Virus record (IMG/VR): IMGVR_UViG_3300033463_000001
Span: 83,298 to 147,297 of that record
DNA from: a virus
Lineage: Duplodnaviria > Heunggongvirae > Uroviricota > Caudoviricetes
Length of the DNA: 64,000 nucleotides
Strand: one strand, 5' to 3'
The notes beneath the pieces are model-generated. The model was not told where the DNA came from, did no database searches, and saw only the letters and a list, made by a program, of their open reading frames with translations. This document shows positions 18,299 to 35,296 of this stretch, piece after piece (within the stretch, counting starts at the first letter, position 1; the number at the start of each line of letters is the position of its first letter). The position numbers and the translations under genes are program-made.

Positions 18299-19455
18299 TC
18301 ATAACTGAAGAACAAGCAAAAAGACTTGCCGGGCAATTAATTGGCAAGTGTGATGTGTTAGACAAAGTGAACGACAACGTTTTGTCTAATAGCCCATTTT
18401 TGCCAAGTGATTCAATTATTGACTTCAAGAAGAACGTCATCCGCAATCGGTACTATCAGATTTTGTCTGCTTTGTCGAAATACGAAGACTTACAAAGTAT
18501 TAAGTCACTAGACACAGCAAAGACTGCACTTTCGCAACTGACAAACAATGCGAAGAAAATCGAAGAGCCTTTACAAGAGCAACTCGAAACTGTGTGCAAA
18601 ACAGTAATGTCCGAAATTTTCAATCAAGGTGAAGAAAATGTAAACTTTACACCAACGCTCGTCGGAAAAGTTCAACCGGCTAATGGTTTTAGGGTTGAAC
18701 CACAAGACGGAGAGGAAATTGAATATCAAGACATGAGCGAGGTTGGTGAAATCGGCCGTGAGATTGAAAAGCGTCGTATCATCAATGCAATCATCGAAGG
18801 CGGTGCGCATGAGATATTTGCAAATTGCGACTCGTGGATTAGTATGGTACATCGCCTCAACAACGAACTCCCAATCCTTTATACGAAAATACTATTACTG
18901 AGAGACCTTGTTCTATTCTTGGACGATTCAAAAATAGATTCTAAGAACGTAGAATCGACTGGCATTGCTGAAGTTATTTTTAACGGCGAAGGAAACAAGC
19001 CTGATATCGACGTACAGGCAATACTATTTCCATATTTACTTGAACAGTCTATCAAAGGTTTCTTGGAATTATTTGCAAGCAACGGACTGCCTGATGATAA
19101 GAACCAGGCAATGTACGTGCTTGCACAAACTGAATGTCTCAACAGCGAACGTTGGTATCAGCGATTCGGTGTTCCTATGTGGCAACTGTTATTTGACGGT
19201 TTGACGCTTGATACTAATAACGTGCCGCATTATATAATGAACTTGTCTATGCAACCATCTAGTGAATTAGAAGGAACGCTTCAAGAAATATTCGCTCACA
19301 CAAAGGCCGGTAGGGTGGCTGCGAAAGAATTATTCGATAAAGCCGTGCATGATTCTGATTATAGTGCATTCGAGGATTCTATCATCAAACGGAATCACGA
19401 TTACGAATGTGCTGAGGAATTAAGCATCGAGGATATAGACAGGTTGTCTATTTAA
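18289..19455 (+). CDS. Hypothetical protein upstream of terminase
   Basis: 388 aa; MEIIITEEQAKRL; KRRIINAIIEGGA. Confidence 0.6.
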   Translation: MEIIITEEQAKRLAGQLIGKCDVLDKVNDNVLSNSPFLPSDSIIDFKKNVIRNRYYQILSALSKYEDLQSIKSLDTAKTALSQLTNNAKKIEEPLQEQLETVCKTVMSEIFNQGEENVNFTPTLVGKVQPANGFRVEPQDGEEIEYQDMSEVGEIGREIEKRRIINAIIEGGAHEIFANCDSWISMVHRLNNELPILYTKILLLRDLVLFLDDSKIDSKNVESTGIAEVIFNGEGNKPDIDVQAILFPYLLEQSIKGFLELFASNGLPDDKNQAMYVLAQTECLNSERWYQRFGVPMWQLLFDGLTLDTNNVPHYIMNLSMQPSSELEGTLQEIFAHTKAGRVAAKELFDKAVHDSDYSAFEDSIIKRNHDYECAEELSIEDIDRLSI

Positions 19456-19464
19456 TCAACCAAT

Positions 19465-21336
19465 ATGATTGAAGATTTAAAACAAATAGGATTTGAATAC
19501 GCTAAGTGCTATAACGACAAAAGCAGGATTTACCTTATCGAGCATTACTTCACAACGAACAATGCCGGTGTGGTAACTCCTTTCTTGTTATTCCCAAGGC
19601 AGAAAGCATTCCTACATAGCCTAGCAGAATATAACAAAACAATAGCAATCAAGCCTCGTCAGGCCGGTATTACAACTACTACTGCAGCATGGACGGCAAG
19701 TCAGATTATCATGGCAGGAATGAACGCCCCGGAGACAGTATTGTGTATTGCAAACAAGCTTGAGATGGCGCAAGATATGCTCAAGAAAATAGAAGCATTC
19801 CTAGAACAGGCTCCAAGGTGGTTGTGGGGAAATAATGAATACTACTCCACAGACCCAACTTCAGAAAAAAACAAGCAGCCAATCTTTATTCGTCAAAACA
19901 GCAAAGAGTTGCTTTTGTTTAATGGATGTCGTGTCGTTGCAAAATCTTCAAAAGAAAATGCTGCGCGTGGTGTGTCTGCAGTATCTATCCTAATTCTGGA
20001 TGAGGCAGCATTTATTGAAAACGGTAAAGATGTTTATGCTTCTGCAGTTGCTGCTACGGCATCTGTGAAAAACGCACGTATCGTCATGGTGTCAACTCCA
20101 AACGGTAAAGACGCTTTGTACTATGACACATATGAGAAAGGTCTCGATAAAGTTAACGGTTATAATGTTGTTGAATTCCGGTGGTACCAAGACCCACGTT
20201 TCAACAAATACCTTACATGGCATAAAACCAACGAGGAGACTGGCGAAGTTGAAGTTATTGCAGAGCCTACAATCGGCAACGATGGTACAATACCATATGA
20301 TGAAGAGAAGTGGCACGACCTCGTACAGGATGGTTGGAAGCCAAGTTCTCCGTGGTACGTTTCTATGTGCGAATCGTTCAATAACAACTCGATTAAAATT
20401 GCACAAGAGCTTGATGTATCATTCCTTGGTTCTAGCGCAACAGTATTGCCGTCTGACACAATAGAGATGCAACGCAACACAAACATGCGTGACCCGATTA
20501 CTGAGATGTCCGACCCGCTCGTTCCTGAGATGTGGTTCTGGAAGCCTCCAATAGAAGGTCATAAATACATTGTATGCTGCGACCCGTCTCGTGGCGACTC
20601 ATCAAGCGCCGATAACACAGCAATCGAAATTATCGACATGAATGGTGTCGATGAAAACGGTATGCCGATTATCGAGCAGGTGGCCGAATACGTAGGTAAG
20701 CGTCCTGGTGATGAAATAGGTGAGATGCTGTATACATATGGCAAACTCTACAACGATGCGTTGATAATTGTCGAGGCAATCGGTGGTGTTGGAGACCCGG
20801 CGCTTATTATGCTTCAACGTATGGGATACACCAACCTGTATTTCGACGATGAGAACCTTAAAACATATGTTTCTCAGACTGACACGTATAGGTACAAAGC
20901 TGTTGGTGGCGACCCGAATAAAGTTCCTGGTTGGCGCTCAAACTCGTATCGTATGCAGATGCTTACGAATTTTGCTACAATGGTTAAAACAAACCAGTAC
21001 AAGATACGTTCTATCCGCACGATACACGAATTAGAGACGTGGGTATTTAAGAATGGGCGCCCAGACCATATGAACGGCCAACACGACGATACAATTACAA
21101 GTACAGCAATGGGTTTATTCGTGTTGATATACTCAATCAACAAGTCTAACTCGTCAATCGAAAAGGATAAGGCCATATTGAGCGCCTATGTAACAACTAG
21201 TCATGCTACAAGCACGCAAGCGAACTACAGGACATATGTATCGAGCATAAGTGCTCGCCCGAATAATACCATCTACACGACAACATCCAGTAAGAAAAAC
21301 GGTGGAAATGTGTACGCTTGGTTATTTGCTAGGTAG
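19465..21336 (+). CDS. terL: Terminase large subunit (T4 gp17-like)
   Basis: KPRQAGITT, LILDEAAF, VSTPNG, nuclease CDPSRGD...D and HDD. Confidence 0.93.
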   Translation: MIEDLKQIGFEYAKCYNDKSRIYLIEHYFTTNNAGVVTPFLLFPRQKAFLHSLAEYNKTIAIKPRQAGITTTTAAWTASQIIMAGMNAPETVLCIANKLEMAQDMLKKIEAFLEQAPRWLWGNNEYYSTDPTSEKNKQPIFIRQNSKELLLFNGCRVVAKSSKENAARGVSAVSILILDEAAFIENGKDVYASAVAATASVKNARIVMVSTPNGKDALYYDTYEKGLDKVNGYNVVEFRWYQDPRFNKYLTWHKTNEETGEVEVIAEPTIGNDGTIPYDEEKWHDLVQDGWKPSSPWYVSMCESFNNNSIKIAQELDVSFLGSSATVLPSDTIEMQRNTNMRDPITEMSDPLVPEMWFWKPPIEGHKYIVCCDPSRGDSSSADNTAIEIIDMNGVDENGMPIIEQVAEYVGKRPGDEIGEMLYTYGKLYNDALIIVEAIGGVGDPALIMLQRMGYTNLYFDDENLKTYVSQTDTYRYKAVGGDPNKVPGWRSNSYRMQMLTNFATMVKTNQYKIRSIRTIHELETWVFKNGRPDHMNGQHDDTITSTAMGLFVLIYSINKSNSSIEKDKAILSAYVTTSHATSTQANYRTYVSSISARPNNTIYTTTSSKKNGGNVYAWLFAR

Positions 21337-21393
21337 TTTTTGTTGTTTCTAAAAATGAAACTGCTATATTAACAATTAGATAATTTTATCATT

Positions 21394-23394
21394 GTGGCAA
21401 ATAAGACTTTGACAATATATCAACGGATGGACAGAGTCCTTAACGCTGATTCTCCCGCAGACAGAAGTGAACCACGTCGCGTCAACACGTACAACATTAC
21501 ACCGAGTGTGTCAGACGATATCCTTTATCGCACAGACAACAAAGAAGAGTACGACCTTAAAAAGTTGACGATGCAGCAGGATGCATTCCTTGCTCGCCAG
21601 TGGAAAACTTCAAGTCACAACATCTCTGCTAAGCAACAGCTTAACGGACTTACGTTGCTGAACCTGATGTATCGCGACGCTGACCTCATGGATACATTCC
21701 CTGAGATTGGTGCTGCATTGACGTTATATTCAGACGAAGCAACCACACTCGACCAGCAAGGTAAGATGTTTAATATCACATCTTCTTCGCCACGAGTTAA
21801 AGCAATCCTTGAGGACTTGTTTGTTAAACGGCTCAACTTGAACGTATGGGCGCCGCGTATTATCCGTAACATGTGTAAATACGGTAACACGTATATGCTC
21901 ATGAAGATGCAAAGTAATCGAGGCGTTGAAGCATGGCGTGAGATGCCGGTATATGAGATGCAACGTAATGAAGATGGCGTATCTCCGTACTGGTACAGCA
22001 ACGATAATGCCAAGAATGATAAAAGTACTAAGGTTCCGTCGACGACATTCGTTTGGATGGGTAACACGGACGGCCAAACTCCGGCTAGTGAGTTTAAGGA
22101 TTGGCAAATAGCGCACTTCCGTATTCTCACAGATTCTGTTTTCTTACCGTACGGGCAATCCATATTAAACTGCGCGCGTAGGCATTTTAGGATGCTCTAC
22201 ATGATGGAGGACTCCATGCTCATCTACCGCCTCGACCGGTCTATTGAGCGCCGAGTATTCAAAGTATATGTTGGTGGCATCGATGATAAAGACGTTCCGG
22301 CTTACGTTGACCAAGTTATTAACCAAACAAAGCGTGGTTCTATTATTGACCCACAGACCGGACAAATCGACATTCGCAAAAACTGGGCTTCTGTTGTAGA
22401 TGATTACTACATCCCGGTTCGCGACATGAACGCACCTAACCCGATTGAGACATTGCAAGGAGCACAGAACCTTACTGCCATAGACGACATAAAGTTCATG
22501 CAAAACAAAGTGTTCACGGCACTGCGTGTACCGAGGGCATTCTTGAGCTTTGACGAGTCTACCGGAGAAGGTAAAAACCTTGCTATGATGGACGTTCGCT
22601 TCGCGCGTGCTGTCAATAGGATTCAGTTGGCATTCATCGAGGAGTTGACACGTGTTGCAATTATCCACCTCATACTTCTTGGTCTCAAGGATGAGCTCAC
22701 CAATTTCTCTATATCAATGAACAACCCGTCATCTCAGGCTGACACTCTTGCATGCGAATTGATGCAAAAGAAACTCAGCTTGGTAAGGGATGCGGTTCAA
22801 GATAACGGAAACGGCATACAAACGCTGTCACTGCAACGCGCGTTGAAGATGTTCCTTAACTTCTCCGAGGAAGATATTAAAGAAAACTTTAATGAGATAC
22901 GTCTTGAGAAAGCACTTGCCGAGGAATTGAATAAGACGCCTGAGATTATTAAACGCACACATATCTTCGACCCGGTTGATAGGCTGTATGGCGAACCAGG
23001 TGCTGAATATTCAAGCGCTGGTGGTGAAGATGGAGATGGCGGTCCTGGTGGAGCACCTGGCGGAGGAGGCGGTGGCTTCGGAGGCGGAGGTGACTTCGGT
23101 GGCGGGCTAGACGCAATCTCTGGTGATGAAGGTGCCGGTGAAGTAACAGGCGAAGAGGGCGAAGCACCAATGGGTGAAGTAACTCCTGCCGGAATGGCTC
23201 CTGAAGCACCAGCACCTGGAAATCCAGGAGAGACTACAGCTCCTGAACCTCCGGTAAATCCGAATGAGGGTAAAAAACCAAAGGGAAATGGTAAACTACT
23301 CACAGAGGATAAAGTTCTCTTAGATACCAAGAATCTCATGCAGAACGCTTTTACCGAAATGATTAGTGAAATCGACAAACAAATAGAAAGCTAA
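21394..23394 (+). CDS. Portal protein (T4 gp20-like)
   Basis: PEIGAAL, PYGQSIL, MEDSMLIYR..RSIERRVFKVYVG, DDYYIP, ALRVP; Gly/Pro/Glu-rich tail. Confidence 0.92.
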   Translation: MANKTLTIYQRMDRVLNADSPADRSEPRRVNTYNITPSVSDDILYRTDNKEEYDLKKLTMQQDAFLARQWKTSSHNISAKQQLNGLTLLNLMYRDADLMDTFPEIGAALTLYSDEATTLDQQGKMFNITSSSPRVKAILEDLFVKRLNLNVWAPRIIRNMCKYGNTYMLMKMQSNRGVEAWREMPVYEMQRNEDGVSPYWYSNDNAKNDKSTKVPSTTFVWMGNTDGQTPASEFKDWQIAHFRILTDSVFLPYGQSILNCARRHFRMLYMMEDSMLIYRLDRSIERRVFKVYVGGIDDKDVPAYVDQVINQTKRGSIIDPQTGQIDIRKNWASVVDDYYIPVRDMNAPNPIETLQGAQNLTAIDDIKFMQNKVFTALRVPRAFLSFDESTGEGKNLAMMDVRFARAVNRIQLAFIEELTRVAIIHLILLGLKDELTNFSISMNNPSSQADTLACELMQKKLSLVRDAVQDNGNGIQTLSLQRALKMFLNFSEEDIKENFNEIRLEKALAEELNKTPEIIKRTHIFDPVDRLYGEPGAEYSSAGGEDGDGGPGGAPGGGGGGFGGGGDFGGGLDAISGDEGAGEVTGEEGEAPMGEVTPAGMAPEAPAPGNPGETTAPEPPVNPNEGKKPKGNGKLLTEDKVLLDTKNLMQNAFTEMISEIDKQIES

Positions 23395-23423
23395 TACGTA
23401 TTTATTGGTATATAACGAATGCG

Positions 23424-24308
23424 ATGAAGAAGAAACAATTACAAGAGATGTGGTCTGCTAGCCTATTGAATAGCGCTAGCTGCATCACGATAGACGATTA
23501 TGCCAACGCTGAGAAATTCATGGCCGAGGCGATTAACCATCTGAATAGCATGCGTACCGAATACGAGTACTATTCACACCCGATTACAAACTTCGGAGTC
23601 CTCAATCGTCTCGTATCCGAGAATCTTGATGAACTGCAGAATAACTTCCCTGAGTTTATTAACGAGTGGACTGCGACGATTAAATCAGATAAAAACCTGC
23701 GCGCGCAATACTTGATGTACGAGGGGTTGAATGATTTCGACAAATCTTTCGATGCGCCTAAATACATCACGGAGTCTGTTCGCATTGCTTCTGAGGATAT
23801 CGACGCGGCAACGTTACTTGAAAGTAATATGAAAGCTTTTGAGCTTCTAAAAAAACACGAGCTTATCATTCCGGACACTCTCACCGAAGCTGACGAGAAA
23901 TACTATGGCGCTTGCCAATACATGCTCGAACACAAGAAAGATAATCTCACACTGTCAGAGCACTCCAAAGCGACACAAATCGCTTCTGAGTATATCAAGG
24001 AGGCAAGTGAGCACAAAGCACAAAGCGCGCTTTCGTCTCTAGCTGAAAACGTAAACCAGTTAACGAAAGATGAATATGCCATTGTTGAGGCCGCCATGGG
24101 TGATGAGGAGAAACAACAGGAAGTTTTCAACAATCTCAAGGACGAATGCTTAAAGAAGGTAAACGGCGAGATTGAGAAAGCACAAGACGATGACGAAGAT
24201 GGTAAAGCGCGTTTAGCAAACATCAAAGAGGCTTTGAGTAAAAAGCAATTTAACGCTAAAACTTTCAAAGAGGACATCGTCAAGCTGGTATCATTCGCAG
24301 AAATTTAA
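23424..24308 (+). CDS. Hypothetical helical head-assembly protein
   Basis: 294 aa following portal; late box at 23399-23405. Confidence 0.55.
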   Translation: MKKKQLQEMWSASLLNSASCITIDDYANAEKFMAEAINHLNSMRTEYEYYSHPITNFGVLNRLVSENLDELQNNFPEFINEWTATIKSDKNLRAQYLMYEGLNDFDKSFDAPKYITESVRIASEDIDAATLLESNMKAFELLKKHELIIPDTLTEADEKYYGACQYMLEHKKDNLTLSEHSKATQIASEYIKEASEHKAQSALSSLAENVNQLTKDEYAIVEAAMGDEEKQQEVFNNLKDECLKKVNGEIEKAQDDDEDGKARLANIKEALSKKQFNAKTFKEDIVKLVSFAEI

Positions 24309-24370
24309 TATTTTAGCGACCGTTTTTAACAAGAATGCACTATATTAATAGTGCATTTATTTTTTTATAC

Positions 24371-24808
24371 ATGGCAACAAAAGGAGAAATTCACTACAAC
24401 CAAGAGTTTAAGGCATATACAACTCATGGACATAAATATGCCTACGGAACAACAGACAGGTATGCTGGCGATAGCGTTTACATCTATTACAAGCCGGCCA
24501 TGCAAATCTCACAGAAAATCAACGTGACGGATGTAGAGAGGAAAATCACATCAAAACTTCGTGCACTAATGAATAAGGCGGTGTTGGAGTATCCGGAGTT
24601 TAACAAGTCTTATATCTTAGACTTCCAATTCTCTAATAAAGTTTTCACACCTGGTATTAAAAGTAAACTTTCTTTAGAGGTGTTTCTATCTACAGTAAAC
24701 AAATTCAAAAGCCCAGACGTGCATAAAAATGCACTATCTGCCATTTCAAACCTACTAATTGGCCACATAGACGAGGAAATTAAGGACTTTGCAGCTATTT
24801 ATGGATAG
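24371..24808 (+). CDS. Hypothetical protein
   Basis: ORF preceded by an ACTATATTAAT box near 24340. Confidence 0.55.
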   Translation: MATKGEIHYNQEFKAYTTHGHKYAYGTTDRYAGDSVYIYYKPAMQISQKINVTDVERKITSKLRALMNKAVLEYPEFNKSYILDFQFSNKVFTPGIKSKLSLEVFLSTVNKFKSPDVHKNALSAISNLLIGHIDEEIKDFAAIYG

Positions 24809-24829
24809 TAAATATTTGCGCAAGAAACT

Positions 24830-26503
24830 ATGAATTTACAACAACGTCGCGTCTTAACAAAAAATGCGATTGAGAATAAAATCACCCACGGTAAAAAACT
24901 ACAACTTGCCAAGGCAAAATTGTCAGCACCAAAAGTACATGTGCTATCTCTAAAAGCAGCACATGATGTTGCTATTGCACCTGAATTCGTAAACCCGATT
25001 CTTACGACGCCAGAAGCAGTTGCAAATCAACCAGCTAATATACTAGAAACCATGGAACATCAAGTTATCACTTTTGATAGAACGAACAATAAGCGTGTTT
25101 TGTGTTGTATTGTATGCCACAATGAAAACGCAAACTGCGAATACCTACTTGATTCGCTAGAGGGTGCAATGGATACTAAGGTAATAGACTGTGCAAGTGC
25201 AGTTAAAAATAACCGTTTCATCCTATGCGACAATCTGATGTTTGGAGGTGCGTACAACAAGGCTATAGAACTAATGATTGAAGGTGGATACGACTGGTTG
25301 TTATTCTTTGCCGGTGACGTCCAGATTGATAAACGTAATATGTCTGCGCTTATCAATGAGGTTAATATGGTGAAACAGTCTACAAACATCGGCGTATGGG
25401 TACCATGTACGACACAAGATAGTCATGATTGTGGTGAAAACCGATATACAGGTAGCAACATGATGTATGTAACCAAACATATCGATGGTTATGCAACGCT
25501 TGTTCGTGCTGACGTTGTTAAAAATTCACAGCCGGCAATTAAAGAGATTGTTCTTGGTTGGGGTATTGATTGGTACGAACGGTATGAAGCCCAAAAACTC
25601 GGTCTGATGACTGTTGCTGATGATAGTGTATGTGTTAAACATCCCTGGGGAACAAGCTACAACGCATCTGCTGCAGACTTGGAAGCTATTGCGGTAAAGC
25701 GCAAATATTATCCTACATTTGAGCGGGCGTCAAAAACTGGATGGACACACGTGTGTGTATATGATGGTATCACTACGAATATCTACATCTGTACACACAA
25801 AGATTTTGTACCGTCGGTTTCTAACCCTGCATATCACGTTATTAAACGCTCTGATGTCACTATAACAGACTCACATGGACTATCAGTAGTTCAGACAAAC
25901 GAAGATAATTCTGATTTCTCATTCCAGCGTTCGTATGGTGAAACATACTTCTTACTACATAATGATGTACCAAAATGCGATAACGTAGGATACTGCCATT
26001 ATCGGCGATACTTTACAGAAATGGATGATATCTATAAAATAAACGCCGAATTGATATCGCACAAAGCTATTGTATTCAACCACGCTGTCTTGTCGCCGAA
26101 TATTGCAAGGCACTACGCAATGTGCCATAACGGCAATGATATCATTGAGGTGTTCAACTATGCGAAAGAGTATTATCCAGACCGCGTTAATGAAATAGAC
26201 GATTTCTTGGTACACAACCAGGTATTCTATCCCTGCAATTCATTTATTACGAAATACGACATTTACATGGAATTAAAGAAATTCTTGCTTTACGTATTCG
26301 GCCGCTATAACGCGGTTCATAAAATACGTACACAAGATGACGTCGTGAATTATGTGCAAAACAACCTTGATAAATTCCACAATAGGGATGTACAATATCA
26401 AGCACGTCTCCATGGATTCCTAGGCGAACGACTTACCTCATTCTTCTTCAAACATGTCGTTGGGGATGTTATTGAATCAAATATGGTTTTAACAAATTCG
26501 TAA
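24830..26503 (+). CDS. Bifunctional glycosyltransferase: GT-A (GT2-like) plus DUF4422 (GT111-type galactofuranosyltransferase)
   Basis: FGGAYN...FFAGDV...GWGID in the first half; IYICTHK, YGE, GYCHYRRYF, NSFI, GFLGERL in the second half. Confidence 0.75.
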   Translation: MNLQQRRVLTKNAIENKITHGKKLQLAKAKLSAPKVHVLSLKAAHDVAIAPEFVNPILTTPEAVANQPANILETMEHQVITFDRTNNKRVLCCIVCHNENANCEYLLDSLEGAMDTKVIDCASAVKNNRFILCDNLMFGGAYNKAIELMIEGGYDWLLFFAGDVQIDKRNMSALINEVNMVKQSTNIGVWVPCTTQDSHDCGENRYTGSNMMYVTKHIDGYATLVRADVVKNSQPAIKEIVLGWGIDWYERYEAQKLGLMTVADDSVCVKHPWGTSYNASAADLEAIAVKRKYYPTFERASKTGWTHVCVYDGITTNIYICTHKDFVPSVSNPAYHVIKRSDVTITDSHGLSVVQTNEDNSDFSFQRSYGETYFLLHNDVPKCDNVGYCHYRRYFTEMDDIYKINAELISHKAIVFNHAVLSPNIARHYAMCHNGNDIIEVFNYAKEYYPDRVNEIDDFLVHNQVFYPCNSFITKYDIYMELKKFLLYVFGRYNAVHKIRTQDDVVNYVQNNLDKFHNRDVQYQARLHGFLGERLTSFFFKHVVGDVIESNMVLTNS

Positions 26504-26504
26504 T

Positions 26505-27623
26505 ATGAAACAATACGACTATGTAATAGTTGGAGCCGGAATCTACGGCTCCACATTTGCTCACTTTGCAACAAAGGCTGGTAAAAAATGCCTTGTGATA
26601 GACAAACGTCATCACGTTGGAGGTAATATATACTGTGAAAACATTGAGGGTATTAACGTGCACAAGTATGGCGCGCACATATTCCATACTAATAATAAAG
26701 AAGTGTGGGATTTTGTCAACTCGCTTGTTCCGTTCAATCGATATACGAATAGTCCAGTCGCAAATTACCATGGCGAATTGTATAATTTACCATTCAACAT
26801 GAACACATTCACAAAAATGTGGCCTGATGTTCATACGCCGGCAGAAGCTATTGCTCGCATTGAAGAACAAAAACAGGATGCAGTTAAAGCTCTTAACGGT
26901 CGGGAGCCTGGTAATCTAGAAGAACAAGCTCTTTGTCTTGTTGGAAAAGACATTTTCAAAAAACTCATCAAGGAATACACTGAAAAACAGTGGGGGCGTG
27001 ATTGCAAAGACCTACCGGCTTTCATTATTAAGCGTGTTCCAATTCGAATGACATTTGATAACAATTACTTCAACGATGCATATCAAGGAATTCCTATTGG
27101 AGGATTTAATGTTCTTATCGACAAACTCCTTGAAGGTTCAGATGTGCGTCTCGGTTATGATTTCTTCGAGCATAAAGATGAATTAAAAGAACTTGCGGAA
27201 ACAATTGTATACACCGGTCAGCTTGATGAGTATTTCGATTTCAAACTAGGTCACCTAGATTGGAGGGCGGTCTCATTCAAAACACGTGTAGAGGATACAC
27301 CGAACTATCAGGGTGTTGCTGTAATGAATTTCACATCTCACGAGCAACCGTACACGCGCGTCATCGAGCATAAGCACTTTGAAAGTTTCGGAAAAGACGT
27401 ATACGACAATCCAAAGACAGTTGTCAGCGAGGAATATAGTACAGAGTTCCATATTGGCATGGAACCGTATTACCCCGTAAATGACGATAGGAATAACGCG
27501 CTTGCTGAACAGTACAGAGAGTTAGCATCGAAAGAGAAAAACGTGATATTTGGTGGCCGGCTGGCTGAGTATAAGTATTACGACATGAATGTCATCATAG
27601 AAAACATAATGAAACAACAATGA
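26505..27623 (+). CDS. glf: UDP-galactopyranose mutase
   Basis: VIVGAGIYG, GGNIYCE, HKYGAHIFHT, YTEKQWG, YFNDAYQGIP, EPYYP, GRLAEYKYYDM. Confidence 0.96.
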   Translation: MKQYDYVIVGAGIYGSTFAHFATKAGKKCLVIDKRHHVGGNIYCENIEGINVHKYGAHIFHTNNKEVWDFVNSLVPFNRYTNSPVANYHGELYNLPFNMNTFTKMWPDVHTPAEAIARIEEQKQDAVKALNGREPGNLEEQALCLVGKDIFKKLIKEYTEKQWGRDCKDLPAFIIKRVPIRMTFDNNYFNDAYQGIPIGGFNVLIDKLLEGSDVRLGYDFFEHKDELKELAETIVYTGQLDEYFDFKLGHLDWRAVSFKTRVEDTPNYQGVAVMNFTSHEQPYTRVIEHKHFESFGKDVYDNPKTVVSEEYSTEFHIGMEPYYPVNDDRNNALAEQYRELASKEKNVIFGGRLAEYKYYDMNVIIENIMKQQ

Positions 27624-28621
27624 ATATCTTAATCACAGGTGTTGCCGGACTGATTGGCAGTCGCTTCGCCGATTATTTGCTAAAAACAACAGACAATACG
27701 GTAGTTGGTATCGACTGTCTTGAAGAGTGGGGAAACTGTAAAGAAAACATCCCTGATGGTGTAATATTTTTCAAACGCGACTTATCAAGGGATAGTGTGC
27801 GTGATATCTTTGAACAATATCACTTCGATTTGGTTTACCACTTCGCTGCATATGCTGCAGAGGGACTTTCTCCATTTATGCGAATGTTCAACTACAGCAA
27901 CAATATTGGTGCAACTGTAAACATTATCAACGAATGCATCCGTTTCTCTGTAAAGCGCCTCGTATATACGTCTTCGATGTCTGTATACGGTCACGGCGTT
28001 AAACCTGGTACGCGTTTCACTGAGGAAGACCCGTTGGCGCCAATCGACCCGTATGGAACAAGTAAGTTCGCTTGTGAGAATGATATAAAGATAGCCGGAG
28101 AACAACACGGACTTGACTGGTGTATTATTCGCCCTCATAACGTATTCGGCGCAAATCAAAACGTCAATGATAGATATCGCAACGTGCTTGGAATATGGAT
28201 GCATCAAATTTACCACGGCGAGCCAATTCTCGTTTACGGAGACGGTAATCAAACACGAGCTTTCACAGAAGTAACTAACATCTTACCGTGTTTGTTAACT
28301 GCCGGAGTAGCAGACCAATGTTCGAAGCAGATTATCAACCTTGGTGGTATCAAGGAGTTTACAATCAATGAAGCAGCGAAGATTCTGTGTGACATCACCG
28401 GATATGACAACATTATTCACCTAGAGCAAAGGCACGAGGTAAAATACGCAGTACCGACATTCCAGAAATCCATTGACCTATTAGACTACAAAGAGGATAT
28501 ATCATTCAAGGATGGTCTTGCAAATATGTGGGAGTGGGCTAAGAATGGTAGGATTCACGACTGGTTTGTCTGGAACAATTTCGAGTTAGACAAAGGAATC
28601 TATAGTTACTGGAAGAAGTGA
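27620..28621 (+). CDS. NAD-dependent epimerase/dehydratase (UDP-hexose 4-epimerase-like)
   Basis: TGVAGLIG, HFAA, TSSMSVYG, YGTSK, GDGNQTRAF. Confidence 0.88.
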   Translation: MNILITGVAGLIGSRFADYLLKTTDNTVVGIDCLEEWGNCKENIPDGVIFFKRDLSRDSVRDIFEQYHFDLVYHFAAYAAEGLSPFMRMFNYSNNIGATVNIINECIRFSVKRLVYTSSMSVYGHGVKPGTRFTEEDPLAPIDPYGTSKFACENDIKIAGEQHGLDWCIIRPHNVFGANQNVNDRYRNVLGIWMHQIYHGEPILVYGDGNQTRAFTEVTNILPCLLTAGVADQCSKQIINLGGIKEFTINEAAKILCDITGYDNIIHLEQRHEVKYAVPTFQKSIDLLDYKEDISFKDGLANMWEWAKNGRIHDWFVWNNFELDKGIYSYWKK

Positions 28622-28622
28622 T

Positions 28623-29237
28623 ATGGAAGAGGTTAAAACCTCAGAACAATATGGATGCACGATTGTAGAACACATAGACGGAAAGCGCAAACCACTATGT
28701 GTTCTTGGCGTTCTACTTACACCGAGAGGTATTGAGATTCGTGATGAGATGATATCAGTTCTTTCTCCGTATTATCACGTATACGAGGTACAGCAGCAGG
28801 AACCAGGAGTGTTGTTTGAATACCCGGCGCTTCGGTTCATGCAAGAGCTATGTCTATATCAACATCAGCCATGTCTCTATCTACACACTAAAGGTGCTGC
28901 ATCAAACGGCTCCATGCAATCTAGGGTGCGTAAAATGTGGTATCACGAGTTTCTCCATTGTATAGATTGGTACATGCAGCAAACAGACACGACATATCCT
29001 GTTGTTGCGTGTCCATTCACTGGAACTGGAAGACAGACGTGGTTCAACGGTTTTTATGCGAATGAATATGCAATGGCTAGTGTAAATATAGAACCAAATG
29101 CTGACCGATATCATTTTGAATCGTTATTCAGAGATTATCATCACGTTCGCATTGAAGCACGCATCGACAACGATGTTAGTGAAAGAAAAATACCTGACAT
29201 GTTTCACAAGGTGAGAACCATCTCACAATCTGTTTAA
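28623..29237 (+). CDS. Putative glycosyltransferase-like protein (YLHTKG motif)
   Basis: FEYPAL...LYLHTKG...WFNGFYAN...RYHFE; last gene of the sugar cassette. Confidence 0.5.
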   Translation: MEEVKTSEQYGCTIVEHIDGKRKPLCVLGVLLTPRGIEIRDEMISVLSPYYHVYEVQQQEPGVLFEYPALRFMQELCLYQHQPCLYLHTKGAASNGSMQSRVRKMWYHEFLHCIDWYMQQTDTTYPVVACPFTGTGRQTWFNGFYANEYAMASVNIEPNADRYHFESLFRDYHHVRIEARIDNDVSERKIPDMFHKVRTISQSV

Positions 29238-29255
29238 TTCTTAATATATGGAGAT

Positions 29256-29295
29256 AAGCGGGCTATTCGATGAATAGTTCGCTTGTTTTCTTTTT
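29256..29295 (+). terminator. Intrinsic terminator closing the glycan cassette
   Basis: aagcgggctattc/gaatagttcgctt stem and T-run. Confidence 0.75.
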
Positions 29296-29336
29296 GGTGA
29301 TGTATTTATAGATAGGCAATAATCTGCATATACATT

Positions 29337-29477
29337 ATGGATACGCTAAAAGATATATACAAAATCGAGGAACCGGATTTGAGATGGATGCACGGCGGGA
29401 TTTTTTATGGCCTTAACGGAGCAACTCCGGAATATGATTCTGGTTCGACAGAAGAGGAAACAGTAGAAAGTATTTAA
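29337..29477 (+). CDS. Small 46 aa ORF upstream of the prohead protease
   Basis: MDTLKDIYKIEEPDLRWMHGGIFYGLNG...ESI*; after late box 29303-29309; stop 2 nt before the protease ATG. Confidence 0.55.
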   Translation: MDTLKDIYKIEEPDLRWMHGGIFYGLNGATPEYDSGSTEEETVESI

Positions 29478-29479
29478 CA

Positions 29480-30181
29480 ATGGCTCAGAAGAAACTACAG
29501 GAAATAAAGAAAGGTGAAACCGGAACCGGTCTCTTAATTGAGAACGACGGTTATATCTCTGTTGACTTTGGTAACAACAAAGCCATTTGCGAAGGTATTA
29601 CAAAAGATGGTGGCTGGAATGTTCCAAATCCATTCATCCTGGATACTGTCTTCCAAAAGTATGACATCAAGAATGCTAATGGCCGTATATATCCGAAAGA
29701 AGTCCTGCAGCGCGAGGTTGATAAATATCAACAAAAAATTCGTGAGCGCAGGGCCACAGCAGAAGCAGACCACCCAAGCGAGACAACCATTAGCCTACGT
29801 GGAATTTGCTTAAACGTTGAGGAATTACACTGGGAAGGACAAACGCTTTGTGGAAAAATCAGACTTCTAACGAGTGAGGGATTTAGACGATACGGTGTTA
29901 TCAGTAATCAAGGCGACCAGGTAGCAAACCTCATTCTTTCTGGAATCAAAATTGGCGTATCATCGCGTGGCGTTGGTTCGGTCGAACAGAAGTACGGCCA
30001 AACAATCGTTGGTAATGATTATGAATTGATTTGTTTCGATGCCGTAACAGAACCGAGCACGCCGAATGCGTGGATTATGACTGAACCGGAAACAGAAAAG
30101 CAAGCATATGTGGAAAGTAAGCAATCCAAAGACTCTATTTTGGCAGAAAAAATCAACAAAATGGAGCTAATCCTACTTTAA
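29480..30181 (+). CDS. Prohead core protease (T4 gp21-like)
   Basis: NANGRIYP, EADHP, IGVSSRGVGS, FDAVTEPSTPNA. Confidence 0.93.
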   Translation: MAQKKLQEIKKGETGTGLLIENDGYISVDFGNNKAICEGITKDGGWNVPNPFILDTVFQKYDIKNANGRIYPKEVLQREVDKYQQKIRERRATAEADHPSETTISLRGICLNVEELHWEGQTLCGKIRLLTSEGFRRYGVISNQGDQVANLILSGIKIGVSSRGVGSVEQKYGQTIVGNDYELICFDAVTEPSTPNAWIMTEPETEKQAYVESKQSKDSILAEKINKMELILL

Positions 30182-30285
30182 TTCATAAAAATTATGCAGG
30201 AAAATTGCTTTTTTCATTGTGTTAGCATATTTATAGGTAGATAACGGTATGCCTAAGTATACCTAATTACTGAATAAGAAAGATT

Positions 30286-31614
30286 GTGACGAACATGAAT
30301 TTGAGACCGGAAGTTGTCAAAAAGTCTTTGGACGCAGTAGACAACATGAAAAAGGAAATAAACGAAAACACATCTGCTGTGCTGAAGAAGCTGCTCTCTG
30401 AGGCTGTTAAGGCAGACGTTGCTGCGGTTGACAATGAGGATACACCCTCAGATGTCAATACCGACGGCAGCAAGGTGGAAGGTACTACTGACTCCGGCAA
30501 GACAAATGATGAGCAATCGAAAGAAGAGGCTACGCAGACACCTGACGAGAATCAGGATGGCGACACCAACACAGAAGATTGGTCTGAATTTGATTCCTTT
30601 AAGGGGGAAGATGGGAAGTACGACCTTACAAATGCAAGTGACGAAGACGTCGTTAGAGTGTTTAAAAAAATGGACAATACCGATAAGCTACGCATCGTGC
30701 AGGACGGCGATAAGGTAGAAATCCATGACGGAGATACTGGAGCAGATTATATCATCGACTTGGGAGAAGAAGTAAGCAACAACCCAATTCAAAAAGAAAA
30801 CACCAATAAAAGTATGAGTAATACCAAATTACAAACTATTTATGAAGTTGCTTTGGGTTATACTGATTCATACCAAAGCAAAGATGCAATGACAACTCCT
30901 CCGAACACGGAAGTTGCACCGAACCAGCATCGCGATTTGAACGCTGGCATTCCTACCGGAAGCGAAAAGCCTTGGGCTAAACCTAACAAAACTGCAAAGC
31001 CGTTCGATAACAAGCAAAATGTAACCGAAGAGGCAAGCGGCAGTGTAATTGAGGATGAGGCTCAGGTAGAAGAAGTTGCAGCACACGCATCAGTTAAGTC
31101 AACTACGGTTGTTAAGAGCGACCCGACGAACCCGCAAGGACGTCCTCACCGTGGTACCAAACCTGCAGGTGCTGTACAGACAGAAGGTAAGAAATTCGCT
31201 GTTACAGAGGCTCAGCTCGCGAAGATTCAGAAAATCTTTGAGGAGAACGAAAGCCTGAAGAAATCGCTTGTGAAGTTCCGCAATGAACTCAATGAGGCTG
31301 TTGTTACTAACGTGGCCACCACACTTGCGCTCAAGACCATCCTTGAGAACACGACTACAGAGAATGAAAAGAAAGACATTGTCAATCGTTTCAAGACTGA
31401 AGCTAAGTCCATCGATGGCGCAAAGGCACTGTATGAGAGCATTAGCCGTGAGTTGAAAAAGACTCCTGCTGACAATCTCGCCGAGAGCATCAACCAAAAG
31501 ATTGTGGCCGGCAGTTCTGCACAACAGATTAACGAAGCCAAGGAGCAAGCACTGCAAGCAGAAAATGAAAGCATTGCTCGCATCCAGGACATGATGCACA
31601 GGGTTTGTAAGTAA
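30286..31614 (+). CDS. Prohead core/scaffold protein (gp22-like)
   Basis: Acidic coiled-coil protein between protease and MCP; late box at 30228-30234; start may be ATG 30295. Confidence 0.75.
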   Translation: MTNMNLRPEVVKKSLDAVDNMKKEINENTSAVLKKLLSEAVKADVAAVDNEDTPSDVNTDGSKVEGTTDSGKTNDEQSKEEATQTPDENQDGDTNTEDWSEFDSFKGEDGKYDLTNASDEDVVRVFKKMDNTDKLRIVQDGDKVEIHDGDTGADYIIDLGEEVSNNPIQKENTNKSMSNTKLQTIYEVALGYTDSYQSKDAMTTPPNTEVAPNQHRDLNAGIPTGSEKPWAKPNKTAKPFDNKQNVTEEASGSVIEDEAQVEEVAAHASVKSTTVVKSDPTNPQGRPHRGTKPAGAVQTEGKKFAVTEAQLAKIQKIFEENESLKKSLVKFRNELNEAVVTNVATTLALKTILENTTTENEKKDIVNRFKTEAKSIDGAKALYESISRELKKTPADNLAESINQKIVAGSSAQQINEAKEQALQAENESIARIQDMMHRVCK

Positions 31615-31652
31615 TAACCCACCTAGTAAAAGAAAAAGTAAATCTAGAGAAA

Positions 31653-33440
31653 ATGAATACATTTCTTCAATCCGGCCTGTTCGGCAACATGGAGCTCGAC
31701 CAGGCAAAGAAAATGCGTGAAGCCATCACCGAACGTTGGGACAAGTTTGGCTTCTGCGAAGGTTTGAGCGGTGTCATCAAAGAGAACATCTGCCAAATCT
31801 ATGAGAACGAGGCTAAGCACCTCATCAAGGAGGCTACTAACTCCGCTAGCTCTGGCTCATTCGAGACTGTAGTATTCCCGATGATTCGCCGTGTCTTCAG
31901 CAAGCTGTTGGCAAACGACATCGTGTCTGTACAGGCCATGAACCTGCCTATCGGTAAGGTATTCTTCATCCTTCCTGTTACATCGAAACGTGAGGAAGTT
32001 CAAGAGGGCGTATTCGAGCACGCTGGTCTTATGGGCTACAACCGTAAGGACAAAAACCAGAACGGTGCTGACACTCCCCGCTACTACCTCCCGGATGACG
32101 TTGTAAACCAGGGTGCTAAGCTCGTACAATTCTATGAGACGACTCTGTACGACCTCTACTACAATGACTTCCTTTATGACGAGTCTAAGGGTCGCGTAAC
32201 CATCGCCCTCGGTTCTGTTACTCCGGTTACTCTGGAGAAGAAACAATTCAAGCCGATTGCGAACACAGCTGACATCAAGACAGCTAACGACGGTACTGTT
32301 CACAGCCTGATGCTGGAGGTTAGTGGCTTCAATAGCTACAACGCTGGTAAGCTGACTGGTCCTGACGGTAACGAGATGGACACTGAGGAGTTCCTCGCTT
32401 CTATGAAGGTTTGGACACCGTCTGCAATCACAGCTGTTAGCGGTAGTGCAGCTTTCGAGGTTGGCGAAGAGATTCCGATGCACGTAATGACCCAGAAGTA
32501 CGGTAAGGGTATTGTTGAATACAATGCACCGGTTGACGTAAACGGTAAAATGTTTATCGAAATCGACCTTACAAAGCCTGGTAAGGGTGAGGAAGGTTAC
32601 GTAGGTGTTGACAAGGCTCAGTTGGCTAGCGTTCTCGCAGCTCTGAAGATTTCTTGGAAGCGATATGACAGCCTTGAGCTTGAGACCGAAATCGGTGAGG
32701 TTTCATTCAAACTTGACTCTATGGAGGTATCTGTTGTTCCGCGTAAGCTGCGTGCAACTTGGTCTCCGGAGCTTAGCCAGGACGTTGCTGCTTTCCACAA
32801 CATCGACGCTGAGGCTGAGTTGACCCAAATGCTTTCTGAGCAGGTAGCAGGTGAAATTGACCGTGAAATTCTTCGTGACCTCCGTAAGGTTGCTCCTTGG
32901 CAAGGTCGTTGGGATAGGAACGGTTGGAGGCGCCTTGAGGCATTCTCTACCAACTATACCCAGAAAGACTGGAATCAAGAGCTGATGACCGTTATCAACG
33001 AGATTTCTGCAATGATTCACAAAGCTACCCTGCGTGGCGGTGCGAACTACATTGTAGTATCTACAGAGGTTAGCGCTCTTCTGAACAACCTTGAGTACTT
33101 CCATGTAACTGACGCTAGCGCTGAGCAAGACCAGTACAACATGGGTATCGAGCGTATCGGTTCACTCCAGGGACGTTATCAGGTATATGTTGACCCGTAT
33201 GCACCTCACTGGTCTATCATCGTAGGTCACAAGGGTAAATCATTGCTCGACACAGGTTATATCTACGCTCCGTACGTACCTATGGCTCTGACCCCGACAA
33301 TGTATAATCCAGAGAACTTCGCTCCGGTTAAGGGCATTATGACAAGGTATGCGAAGAAGTGCGTAAACAACCGTTACTTCGGACACGTACGTGTAGACGG
33401 TCTCCGTATCTACGGTCACGGAACTCAATCGTTCCGTTAA
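31653..33440 (+). CDS. Major capsid protein (T4 gp23-like)
   Basis: FPMIRRVF, VSVQAMNLP, RKLRATWSPELSQD, AGEIDREI, YIYAPYVP, GIMTRY. Confidence 0.95.
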   Translation: MNTFLQSGLFGNMELDQAKKMREAITERWDKFGFCEGLSGVIKENICQIYENEAKHLIKEATNSASSGSFETVVFPMIRRVFSKLLANDIVSVQAMNLPIGKVFFILPVTSKREEVQEGVFEHAGLMGYNRKDKNQNGADTPRYYLPDDVVNQGAKLVQFYETTLYDLYYNDFLYDESKGRVTIALGSVTPVTLEKKQFKPIANTADIKTANDGTVHSLMLEVSGFNSYNAGKLTGPDGNEMDTEEFLASMKVWTPSAITAVSGSAAFEVGEEIPMHVMTQKYGKGIVEYNAPVDVNGKMFIEIDLTKPGKGEEGYVGVDKAQLASVLAALKISWKRYDSLELETEIGEVSFKLDSMEVSVVPRKLRATWSPELSQDVAAFHNIDAEAELTQMLSEQVAGEIDREILRDLRKVAPWQGRWDRNGWRRLEAFSTNYTQKDWNQELMTVINEISAMIHKATLRGGANYIVVSTEVSALLNNLEYFHVTDASAEQDQYNMGIERIGSLQGRYQVYVDPYAPHWSIIVGHKGKSLLDTGYIYAPYVPMALTPTMYNPENFAPVKGIMTRYAKKCVNNRYFGHVRVDGLRIYGHGTQSFR

Positions 33441-33467
33441 TCCGAAAGGATTAATCTCATAAAATTG

Positions 33468-33497
33468 GCAACTCGCAACTAGCGGGTTGCTTTTTTT
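33468..33497 (+). terminator. Intrinsic terminator after MCP
   Basis: gcaactcgc/gcgggttgc stem followed by T7. Confidence 0.8.
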
Positions 33498-33518
33498 ATT
33501 GTAAAATCGTCCAAAGGA

Positions 33519-33550
33519 TTTGCATATTTGAAAAAAATTACTTATCTTTG
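33519..33550 (+). promoter_or_regulatory. Bacteroidota housekeeping promoter (-33 TTTG, -7 TAnnTTTG)
   Basis: TTTG at 33519-33522, 20 nt spacer, TATCTTTG at 33543-33550. Confidence 0.75.
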
Positions 33551-33569
33551 TGTCATAATTTGATTTATT

Positions 33570-35234
33570 ATGCGGAAAGAACTATCCATAGACGAAAAAC
33601 AAGGAATTGTGAACGCGTACAACGCGGGTACAGGACTCGAAGCAATCGCTACAGAGTTCCACGTTGGTAAACTCAAAGTTAAAGCCGTGTTAGATGAGCT
33701 TGGTGTCAAACAGCAGGCTAAGCATCTACGTGTACCAAAACAGTACGTTGTCAAGGACGCATCCATTAAGAAATATCCGGATGTACCAGGCAAACACTAT
33801 GTCTGCACATGCAAGCTTGATGGGTTCAAAACGAACGACTACATGAATAAAGGAGGATTCCTGACGTCTCACCTGGAAAAGGAGTGTGGAATCGAGGTAC
33901 CAACTTTGTGGAAACGCAACGAGTATTACAAACTAACCGGAAACTACTGGCACGAGCAGTATTACGATATCGAATTGGTTGATGACAATTCAACCATCAA
34001 GTGTCCATATTGCGACTGGACGAGTGAGGACGTGGATAATAAATCAGGAATGTTTGAAACACACATCAAAAAGGTGCACGGAATAACTAAAATGGAGTTT
34101 CTTCACGAGCATCCGGAGTGGCGTGACTATTTCCGCTTGGTAAATAAGACGAAGGATAGAGAAATGGAAACGGACGAAAGCAAGTTCGTAACGTGTGCTA
34201 TATGTGGAAAGAAACTTGCGCGCATCGACTGGAAACACCTTCAAAATCATGGAATTACGGTAGATGAATACAAGGCGTTATATGGCGAGAAAACTATTTC
34301 AAATAGCCTACGCATGCGTTTACATGAATCTGGTGTTGAAAGCAACTTGTTAGTTCAACACAATTTCTCGTCTGTTGATGAGAACGAACTCTTGGAGTAT
34401 GTAAAACGGTTTTGCCCAGACGCGAGAAAGGATAGAACTCTATTAAATGGTCAGGAATTAGATATTTTCATTCCATCTAAACATATTGCAATTGAGTTTA
34501 ATGGATGCATGTGGCATACTGAACAATTTGGTGGTAAATCAACAGTATACCATTTGGCCAAAACTGAAATTTGTGAGTATTCCGGCGTGCGACTTATTCA
34601 TGTTTTCGAAGACGAATGGCACCTGCATCAAGAAATGGTCAAACGGAGAATCGCGCATATTCTTGGATTCAGCATGCAACCATCAATATACGCTAGGAAG
34701 TGCACTGTGCGAGAAATATCTATTGAAGAGGCAAAAACTTTCTTAGATGCTTATGATATGAGTGGTTTCTCGTATGCAAACGTTCATTTTGGCATGTTTA
34801 GTGACAACAACCTTTTAGCAGTTATGTCACTAAGAATCACTGGTGAAAACGAATGGCAGCTAAGCAGATTCGCAACTAACGACAATTATAGGCTCGTTGG
34901 TGCGTGTGGTAAACTATTAAGTTATTTCAAAGAGCGATACAACCCAAATCGAATCATATCATACGCCGATAGAAGATGGACTACGGCCGCACATAACATG
35001 TATACAGCAACAGGGTTTACATTCTCTGGATACACAAAGCCTCTGTATAGGTATTACAATCAAAAACAGGACAGATATAAACGCTGGCACGAGCGAACTG
35101 TGCGTAACATATTATTAAAGCATGGATGGAAAACATCTGGGTTAAGTAAACTAGAAATGGCTCGTAATCTAGGTTACGACCGTATCTGGGATTGTGGCCT
35201 TATCCGTTACGTATGGAGTAAAAGCAGTGATTAA
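33570..35234 (+). CDS. Free-standing Hef-like homing endonuclease (Zn fingers, Vsr/PD-(D/E)xK nuclease, GNAT-like C-terminus)
   Basis: CPYC...HIKKVH, CAIC...HLQNH, ELDIFIP...AIEFNGCMWH...FEDEW, ARKC...SYADRRW...RIWDCG. Confidence 0.75.
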   Translation: MRKELSIDEKQGIVNAYNAGTGLEAIATEFHVGKLKVKAVLDELGVKQQAKHLRVPKQYVVKDASIKKYPDVPGKHYVCTCKLDGFKTNDYMNKGGFLTSHLEKECGIEVPTLWKRNEYYKLTGNYWHEQYYDIELVDDNSTIKCPYCDWTSEDVDNKSGMFETHIKKVHGITKMEFLHEHPEWRDYFRLVNKTKDREMETDESKFVTCAICGKKLARIDWKHLQNHGITVDEYKALYGEKTISNSLRMRLHESGVESNLLVQHNFSSVDENELLEYVKRFCPDARKDRTLLNGQELDIFIPSKHIAIEFNGCMWHTEQFGGKSTVYHLAKTEICEYSGVRLIHVFEDEWHLHQEMVKRRIAHILGFSMQPSIYARKCTVREISIEEAKTFLDAYDMSGFSYANVHFGMFSDNNLLAVMSLRITGENEWQLSRFATNDNYRLVGACGKLLSYFKERYNPNRIISYADRRWTTAAHNMYTATGFTFSGYTKPLYRYYNQKQDRYKRWHERTVRNILLKHGWKTSGLSKLEMARNLGYDRIWDCGLIRYVWSKSSD

Positions 35235-35296
35235 CGCGTCTGATAGTGTTGTTATTCCGTTTCTTTAGGTATTTATTATAGAGGATATTTACGAAA

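Follow-up and report, generated by a model that had tools for sequence, protein, structure and literature searches.

Virus-encoded enzymes are known to glycosylate the particles of chloroviruses, giant viruses and some mycobacteriophages; for large phages of gut Bacteroidales this is not established. Mycobacteriophages Che8, Corndog and Myrna carry glycans on the capsid and tail tube, according to the part of PMC12619734 that cites Freeman et al. 2023. Phage-borne genes for Glf, the uridine diphosphate (UDP)-galactopyranose mutase, are also already known: databases hold them as PHROG 9677 and in phages of S. suis, Lactobacillus and Enterococcus, and in Rhizobium phage RL38J1 the gene lies in a DNA-glycosylation cluster, with a proposed role in DNA glycosylation (PMC13326640). 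The only characterised enzyme of glycosyltransferase (GT) family GT111 is WbbM of Klebsiella, which acts on a lipid-linked acceptor (PMC12269835). Described here is a four-gene cassette in the head module of a herbivore-gut giant phage, for which the predicted product is a glycan with galactofuranose (Galf). The window analysed is a stretch of 64,000 nucleotides, bases 83298-147297 of the 327,393-bp IMG/VR virus record IMGVR_UViG_3300033463_000001 (CheckV completeness 93%), and coordinates are those of the window unless marked as genome positions. The cassette very probably makes UDP-Galf and transfers Galf, and proteins of the virion are the favoured target, with a probability of roughly 0.45. 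No description of a comparable Galf module in jumbo phages of gut Bacteroidales was found in the literature.

The cassette consists of four plus-strand open reading frames (ORFs), at 24830-26503 (gene 1, 557 aa), 26505-27623 (gene 2, 372 aa), 27620-28621 (gene 3, 333 aa) and 28623-29237 (gene 4 or o204, 204 aa), joined in turn by a 1-nt spacer, a 4-nt ATGA overlap and a further 1-nt spacer. An intrinsic-terminator-like hairpin with a T-run follows at 29250-29290 on the plus strand. It has 19 pairs, of which 6 are G-C, and no other terminator-like site in a scan of 19000-37600 is as strong. A first-pass annotation, made from the letters and translations of the DNA, had described four coupled genes with their own terminator between portal and prohead protease, and the coordinates, the junctions and the top-ranking hairpin confirm this. 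At the other end, the promoter-like box TATTTATGGATAG occupies 24796-24808 on the plus strand, 34 nt 5′ of the gene 1 ATG. The pattern TATTTAT[ATG]G has 48 copies genome-wide, of which 33 stand 5′ of a co-oriented ORF start at a distance of no more than 80 nt, where the background is 4.6%; the box is often extended by (N)TAG, and its distance to the ORF start is 6-80 nt, mostly 25-30 nt. It also stands 5′ of o294 (23399), of the protease unit (29303, the next box after the cassette terminator), of the scaffold-like gene o442 (30228) and of o475 (35270). The cassette thus forms a unit with a box and a terminator of its own and falls into one class with the adjacent head genes; the box probably represents the structural or late promoter class of the phage. 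In relatives of the phage the box was set aside as evidence, since it precedes only the first gene of the unit in three of five and is absent directly before their DUF4422/GT genes.

Synthesis of the sugar donor is assigned to genes 2 and 3. Gene 2 (26505-27623, plus strand; TIGR00031, PF03275) is glf. Its product reaches 389.7 bits against TIGR00031 over residues 3-370, above the equivalog cut-off of 303.75, so that the earlier assignment stands; it also scores 256 bits against PF03275 and 80 bits against NAD_binding_8, and its GxGxxG motif reads VGAGIYG at residues 9-15. The protein is 70-78% identical to Glf of Paludibacteraceae, Ca. Limimorpha, Prevotella and other herbivore-gut Bacteroidales, the probable host group, which suggests that glf was acquired from there fairly recently. 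Capture of the whole cassette from a bacterium as one block was rejected after 80 loci of Bacteroidales and other bacteria around the closest Glf genes had been examined: none had close homologues of gene 3, of the first GT domain of gene 1 or of o204 beside glf, and weak DUF4422 matches were present in only three. Among GenBank phages no close kin was found, as blastn gave only glf-level matches (64-70% identity) and tblastn with gene 1 gave nothing.

Gene 3 (27620-28621, plus strand) encodes an extended short-chain dehydrogenase/reductase (SDR) that resembles nucleotide-sugar 4-epimerases (PF01370, 1e-43). It stays below every NCBIfam equivalog cut-off, including that of GalE (TIGR01179, 102.4 bits vs 262.3). 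Its best relatives of solved structure (4zrm, 6dnt, 6wjb, 2p5u, MoeE5, 6zl6 and WbgU) are mostly 4-epimerases, which act on UDP-hexose, UDP-N-acetylhexosamine or UDP-uronic acid; the third-best match in the Protein Data Bank, 6bwl (Pal, 1.9e-30), is not assigned as a 4-epimerase here. The motifs GVAGLIG, SSMSVYG and YGTSK are present, forming the S...YxxxK triad, and the TDE motif of 4,6-dehydratases is lacking. The first-pass annotation had an epimerase supplying UDP-galactopyranose. As to the kind of enzyme this is upheld; candidate substrates are UDP-glucose/galactose, the N-acetylated sugars and the uronic acids. Given the ATGA overlap with glf, conversion of UDP-glucose to UDP-galactose is the most economical assumption; alternatively, the enzyme could supply the other GT domain of gene 1.

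Transfer is assigned in the first place to the C-terminal domain of gene 1 (residues 318-542; 25781-26455, plus strand), a DUF4422/GT111-type domain and putative galactofuranosyltransferase. It matches PF14393 with 54.8 bits against a cut-off of 25, over profile positions 2-218 of 220, and retains all 22 invariant columns of a 23-member family alignment, among them ICTHK, HYRRY, CHN..D and YQ.R..ER. A profile of that alignment matches the N-terminal Galf-transferase domain of WbbM (6u4b) with an E value of 5.9e-22; the phage protein alone gave no WbbM match by phmmer. On these grounds the earlier identification of the domain as DUF4422/GT111 is retained.

The preceding domain of gene 1 (residues 86-307; 25085-25750, plus strand) has the GT-A fold and belongs to a family without a name. 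Its 197 homologues are stand-alone proteins of about 215-250 aa or parts of multi-domain proteins, and neither the domain nor 37 of the stand-alone homologues has a Pfam match at E 0.01 or better. The AlphaFold2 (AF2) model of residues 90-295 has a predicted local distance difference test (pLDDT) score of about 95 and the GT-A fold, with Foldseek probability 1.0. VIA Z scores are 13-14.7 over 190-210 residues, at root-mean-square deviations of 3.3-4.4, to B4GALNT1, PcManGT, WrtF and GlfT2 (Z 13.6 for GlfT2), many of the matches being GT2-type. Near-invariant positions are N96, D120, S123, D163, D247, D264 and H271; D163, in AGDVQID, would occupy the DXD site, a placement made without superposition. 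The label GT2 given to this domain in the first-pass annotation is therefore correct as a fold class only, since the model is GT-A yet no Pfam family matches.

Gene 1 begins with a non-catalytic leader (residues 1-85; 24830-25084, plus strand). A basic leader of about 80 aa had been noted from the translation; it is real, about 85 aa long, and no homologue covers residues 1-85 among 1.84 billion representatives. In the AF2 model residues 3-31 form a basic helix and residues 32-81, with pLDDT below 50, a disordered linker. The helix is not amphipathic, and a role as membrane anchor was rejected on a hydrophobic moment (muH) of at most 0.23 and the lack of a transmembrane segment. A tag common to other proteins was rejected as well, for BLAST of residues 1-95 against the 1677 ORFs of the genome returned only chance matches. 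In a sister lineage of the phage (contigs L180, L181 and L218) a small basic ORF of about 56-69 aa (L218 4371-4580; L180 about 415-585) lies between the o145 homologue and a GT fusion, that is, where the basic leader sits in gene 1; the similarity is not significant. Kinship with the L218 ORF (4371-4580) was rejected: BLASTP gave no match, and the Smith-Waterman score, 22, is the same as the mean for shuffled sequences (p 0.47). The further suggestion that the leader docks gene 1 on proheads finds no support, the leader having no homologue, no kin in the genome and no sister-lineage counterpart.

Gene 4, o204 (28623-29237, plus strand), encodes a small GT-A-fold protein of the LYLHTKGA family and is a putative accessory or priming glycosyltransferase. 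The family has at least 70 homologues with an invariant LYLHTKGA and no Pfam family. The AF2 model (pLDDT 94.6) shows a small GT-A fold, with VIA Z scores of 9.6 to the GlcNAc-transferase domain of heparosan synthase, 9.3 to KfiA and 7.7 to PBCV-1 A64R; the values of 9.6-9.1, over 138-153 residues, lie only just above the noise band of the tool (7-8). Searches by sequence found no solved structure even at E 10, and Foldseek matches were weak (best E 8e-3). The family has no conserved DXD, its invariant positions being LYLHTKGA, E66, W140, N142 and R162, so o204, provided that it is a GT, would be metal-independent or non-canonical. Judged by the order of secondary-structure elements in the model, HTK may lie on the strand where a DXD would sit. 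Atlas neighbours of o204 are 86-100% viral, some with DUF8361. In phage-like contigs its homologues adjoin other GTs (GT92/GT2, Stealth+TOD1, hexapeptide+TOD1), and one homologue is part of a polysaccharide locus of a bacterium, together with GT2s, LicD and GT8. No member was found in five complete relatives, in a search without a positive control. With Glf, a 4-epimerase-like SDR, a GT111-type DUF4422 domain and two GT-A-fold domains, the cassette spans donor synthesis and transfer, as the first-pass annotation had proposed.

The following scheme is suggested. The cassette would probably be switched on together with the structural genes. Glf, by homology, would interconvert UDP-galactopyranose and UDP-galactofuranose, and the SDR would increase the supply of a 4-epimerised UDP-sugar, most economically UDP-galactose for Glf. 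Gene 1 joins its GT-A domain to a domain which by homology belongs to the family of the Galf-transferring half of Klebsiella WbbM; the two domains would alternate in the manner of WbbM to make a glycan with Galf and a second sugar, and o204 would add a priming or capping sugar. The least certain step is the acceptor: late in infection, one or more virion proteins would receive the glycan in the cytoplasm. Support for virion proteins as the target is indirect and comes from the promoter class, the position of the cassette and a sequon-like motif.

This motif, S-[GA]-x-T, occurs 120 times genome-wide against 46.8 expected (2.6-fold; SG.T 3.5-fold), while seven permuted or related control motifs have ratios of 0.75-1.46 and the ratio in T4 structural proteins is 0.72. 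At genome positions 200-280 kb, which encode fibre-, adhesin- and lectin-like late proteins, the excess rises to 4.5-fold (73 vs 16.2). Among the motif-rich proteins are a tail fibre that ends in a Peptidase_S74 chaperone domain (genome 269548-271518), a CHB_HEX_C/Fn3-associated protein and a lectin-like jelly-roll protein. The flanks differ between the copies, which are thus not copies of one repeat. One candidate acceptor lies in the window: a late protein with a lectin-like domain (51724-53271, plus strand; PF07953 jelly-roll, 25 bits), which has its own TATTTAT box at 51699 and 9 copies of the motif against 0.37 expected (p 2e-10). Its orthologue in the complete relative G005 has 5 copies where 0.31 are expected, two of which align with copies in the window protein, and is encoded 4 kb from the Glf/DUF4422 cassette of that genome. 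On this pattern S-[GA]-x-T is a possible glycosylation sequon. Should it be one, fibres and adhesins are the targets and the shell of the capsid is not, and such S-[GA]-x-T-rich proteins would be more probable acceptors than the major capsid protein (MCP). The decoration of the capsid proposed in the first-pass annotation is accordingly not favoured, fibre-like late proteins being enriched in the candidate sequon.

Several observations weigh against virion proteins as the target. The portal, the scaffold-like protein, the MCP and other head proteins have 0-1 copies of the motif each, and its link to the enzymes is a correlation only, as all relatives compared carry DUF4422. Acceptor and glycan are predicted here from the genes, and the sole characterised GT111 enzyme, WbbM, acts on a lipid-linked acceptor (PMC12269835). 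The late status of the TATTTAT box is deduced from the genes downstream of it. For gene 1, the AF2 model is poor in the DUF4422 half, with pLDDT below 50 for residues 299-429 and a shallow alignment. The DUF4422 genes of relatives lie at positions outside the head module, so insertion into a hypervariable slot may have put the cassette among head genes by chance.

The same enzymology would also suit another destination, the host envelope. Enzymes of the WbbM (GT111), GlfT2-like and GT2 types normally take lipid-linked acceptors (PMC12269835), and the cassette proteins might act on undecaprenyl-linked intermediates on the inside of the host membrane, the Galf chain being placed on lipopolysaccharide (LPS), capsule or another glycan and exported by the host. 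Receptors would then be masked, blocking superinfection or keeping progeny off debris. The o204 homologue in a bacterial polysaccharide locus fits such remodelling, as do the varied, non-structural places of DUF4422 genes in relatives and the nearly host-like Glf, which would be expected of an auxiliary gene that supplies a host pathway. The o204 family, however, is mostly viral. Neither in the unit nor next to it was an initiating phosphoglycosyl transferase, flippase or transporter found (no genome-wide search for these families was made), and no transmembrane segment or amphipathic membrane helix was found in the cassette proteins, which all look soluble. A structural-gene-type box also allows little time for export before lysis. 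Remodelling of the host envelope is therefore considered rather unlikely.

Phage DNA had been named as a further target in the first-pass annotation, with the transferases putting Galf on hydroxylated bases. Precedents exist: one phage cluster of genes assigned to DNA glycosylation includes a Glf (PMC13326640), and pairs of epimerase and GT glycosylate 5-hydroxymethylcytosine in other phages (bioRxiv 10.1101/2023.12.21.572611). The known phage routes need enzymes that make the base hydroxyl (PMC13326640; bioRxiv 10.1101/2023.12.21.572611). None was found in the 327-kb, 93%-complete genome, where ThyA-like genes for 5-hydroxymethyl- or 5-hydroxypyrimidine synthase (PF00303), TET/JBP genes (PF12851, searched without a positive control) and C5-methyltransferase genes (PF00145) were sought, and DNA glycosylation is unlikely for this reason. 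The unit moreover has a structural-type box and stands among head genes instead of replication genes, and GT111 and both GT-A families differ from the known families of DNA GTs. Hypermodification of DNA is thus highly improbable.

Comparison with relatives bears on both the origin and the variability of the cassette. Portal identity to the nearest cultured phages is only about 34%; about 80 uncultured relatives reach 48-57%, and complete genomes of 348-412 kb are among them. A 4.2-kb contig from another sample (L005) carries the same cassette at 97-99% identity. In the sister lineage, whose protease and MCP are 75% and 77% identical, the order is portal, o294, o145 homologue, GT module, o204 homologue (45%) and protease, the o145 homologue being at the same position in L218 (27% identity, E 6e-19). 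The GT module of this lineage, which lacks glf and SDR, is a GT92-GT2 fusion: L218 has it as one ORF of 767 aa (4600-6903), L180/L181 as two ORFs of 275 and 488 aa (L180 600-2898), a split that is either natural or an assembly frameshift. Exchange of the cassette among related phages, which the first-pass annotation had put forward as a check, is positive, because the same slot is occupied in the sister lineage by a GT92-GT2 fusion and an o204 homologue.

The slot between o294 and protease spans 0.8-5.5 kb in 30 more distant relatives, usually with the protease inverted, and contains DUF723 endonuclease-like genes, BspA-type leucine-rich repeat (LRR) proteins and a DUF4114 protein. The cassette was found in none of 80 IMG/VR loci and none of 29 JGI metagenome loci; L005, with the same cassette, and L180/L181/L218, with a different one, are the only carriers of a GT module in the slot that were found. 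These data, with a cassette G+C of 39-40% under the 44-47% of the flanking head genes, would suit a recently captured, moron-like passenger in an insertion hot spot of unrelated cargo, with no role in the particle and some other cytoplasmic or metabolic end, or no lasting function. A mere passenger is improbable, for the genes are intact, coupled and 97-99% conserved in the second sample, the sister lineage, at 45% divergence, retains a GT module and o204 at the same place, and DUF4422 fusions occur in complete relatives throughout.

DUF4422 genes are present in six of six complete relatives, at varied genome positions. In the five examined (G002-G006) they encode two-domain proteins with DUF4422 at the C terminus, joined to N-terminal partners that are GT32-like, GT8, GT92/GT2_4 or GT4/GT1, with one lacking a Pfam match. 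G005 has two such fusions adjoining its own Glf, which is only 41% identical. In G002 the fusion and its neighbours (L178 6246-10066) are inserted between genes that are adjacent here (genome 166160-167245), which indicates that GT genes of this kind travel as cargo. Across the whole clade, glycans are thus predicted to be made with GT111 as the constant part and a variable partner, whereas the location in the head module and the private donor supply appear as features of this lineage. That relatives keep a GT set yet swap its parts points to selection for varied surface glycans. A broader proposal is that a clade of 270-410-kb herbivore-gut jumbo phages coats fibres and adhesins with Galf-containing glycans, by modular synthases of the form [variable GT]-[GT111] acting on the S-[GA]-x-T sequon; the partner domain, and here also the donor-supply genes, would be swapped like O-antigen genes, giving phage serotypes. 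In this full form the proposal is doubtful. A second GT operon in the window (41972-48386, minus strand; Glyco_tranf_2_5 103 bits, with weak GT4 and GT1 matches) is probably part of the same glycosylation capacity, and its Glyco_tranf_2_5 gene is kept in four of five complete relatives.

Around the cassette the head module is T4-type. It comprises the large terminase (19465-21336), a T4-type portal (21394-23394; PF07230, 247 bits), the S77 prohead protease (29480-30181), the scaffold-like gene o442 (30286-31614) and a Gp23-type MCP (31653-33440; PF07068, 248 bits). The cassette does not directly adjoin the portal, from which it is separated by o294 and o145, at a place corresponding to gp67/gp68 in T4 (order gp20-67-68-21-22-23). 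o294 (23424-24308, plus strand) encodes an acidic 294-aa protein and has its own hairpin at 24333-24358. o145 (24371-24808, plus strand), directly 5′ of the cassette, encodes a small 145-aa protein with no assigned function and no Pfam or PHROG family; its start is probably the ATG at 24371, because the terminator-like hairpin at 24333-24358 precedes it. Kinship of o145 with slot ORFs of the wider relatives was not significant (E 0.12 and 6.8). The portal C-terminus (23000-23394) is a long Gly-rich low-complexity tail, also seen in L002. A 554-aa gene right behind the MCP (33570-35234) has weak zinc-finger/ROS_MUCR-type matches (24 bits); it is unexpected in a head module and is kept in relatives at 37-49% identity. 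Among the relatives, the protease is inverted relative to the portal in most, and in L002 (17952-19718, minus strand), L093, L134 and L135 its gene is about 1.8 kb long with an intein/HINT-like insert, recognised by PF14890 and PF07591, both weak. The BspA-type LRR proteins of the slot (LRR_5, up to 337 bits; L103 15080-16441, L106 16094-17311, L175 5081-6775) may be particle adhesins, and one such protein adjoins the Galf cassette of G005.

The features that are new here are the cassette's own TATTTAT box, the GT92-GT2 swap in the sister lineage, the DUF4422 fusions throughout the clade and the finding of no genes for a DNA target. Together they describe a complete, compact, predicted Galf pathway behind an apparent structural-gene promoter, with parts exchanged between close lineages. 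With the product on virions, host range, gut stability and recognition by antibodies and by Galf-binding lectins would all be affected; natural domain-swap variants would become available for the enzymology of the poorly understood GT111 family, and S-[GA]-x-T would become a candidate protein sequon. Were fibres coated across the clade, this would be the first cytoplasmic system for protein glycosylation with Galf and the first glycan-variable virion surface among phages of Gram-negative gut bacteria. A product directed to the host surface would instead represent a rare case of a lytic jumbo phage rewriting the host glycan late in infection.

Among bacterial systems, WbbM of Klebsiella pneumoniae O2a (6u4b), a bifunctional GT111 + GT8 galactan polymerase, resembles gene 1 in the fusion of DUF4422/GT111 to a second GT domain and in working together with Glf. 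The domain order is reversed, with GT111 C-terminal in the phage protein; the partner is GT8 in WbbM and a GT-A family without a name in the phage, and the 85-aa leader is found in the phage protein only. WbbM is encoded in an O-antigen locus and uses a sugar linked to undecaprenyl diphosphate, whereas the phage gene lies in a head module and would, on the favoured reading, serve virion proteins. The pamABC genes of Kingella kingae (PMC12269835) provide the same gene set for a Galf glycan, with a GT111 (PamA), a Glf (PamB) and a GT2 (PamC), but as separate bacterial genes with LPS as acceptor, and the role of PamA is itself undefined.

Viral systems offer likenesses of another kind. RL38J1 shares a phage-encoded UDP-galactopyranose mutase linked to phage glycosyltransferases; it encodes a ThyA homologue, a 5-hydroxy-dCMP synthase, along with GTs of the DNA type, whereas no ThyA-like gene was found in the present genome and the GTs belong to other families. 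The capsid and fibril machineries of chloroviruses and mimivirus (PMC9614988, PMC5408694) likewise combine virus-encoded sugar-nucleotide enzymes with GT-A transferases in the cytoplasm, and the GT domain of PBCV-1 A64R has the GT-A fold in common with o204 (Z 7.7), a likeness at fold level only; these are viruses of eukaryotes, with other sugars and enzyme families. Virion glycosylation in mycobacteriophages, so far as it is covered in the cited part of PMC12619734, is similar in that phage-encoded GTs lie among or near structural genes and the glycans are on virion proteins. The phages of that account are small actinophages with acceptors at the C-termini of capsid and tail-tube proteins and without Glf. 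The present phage, in contrast, is a 327-kb jumbo phage of Bacteroidales type with its own UDP-Galf supply and GT111, a system read from its genes, in which the candidate sites are internal S-[GA]-x-T motifs of fibre-like proteins.

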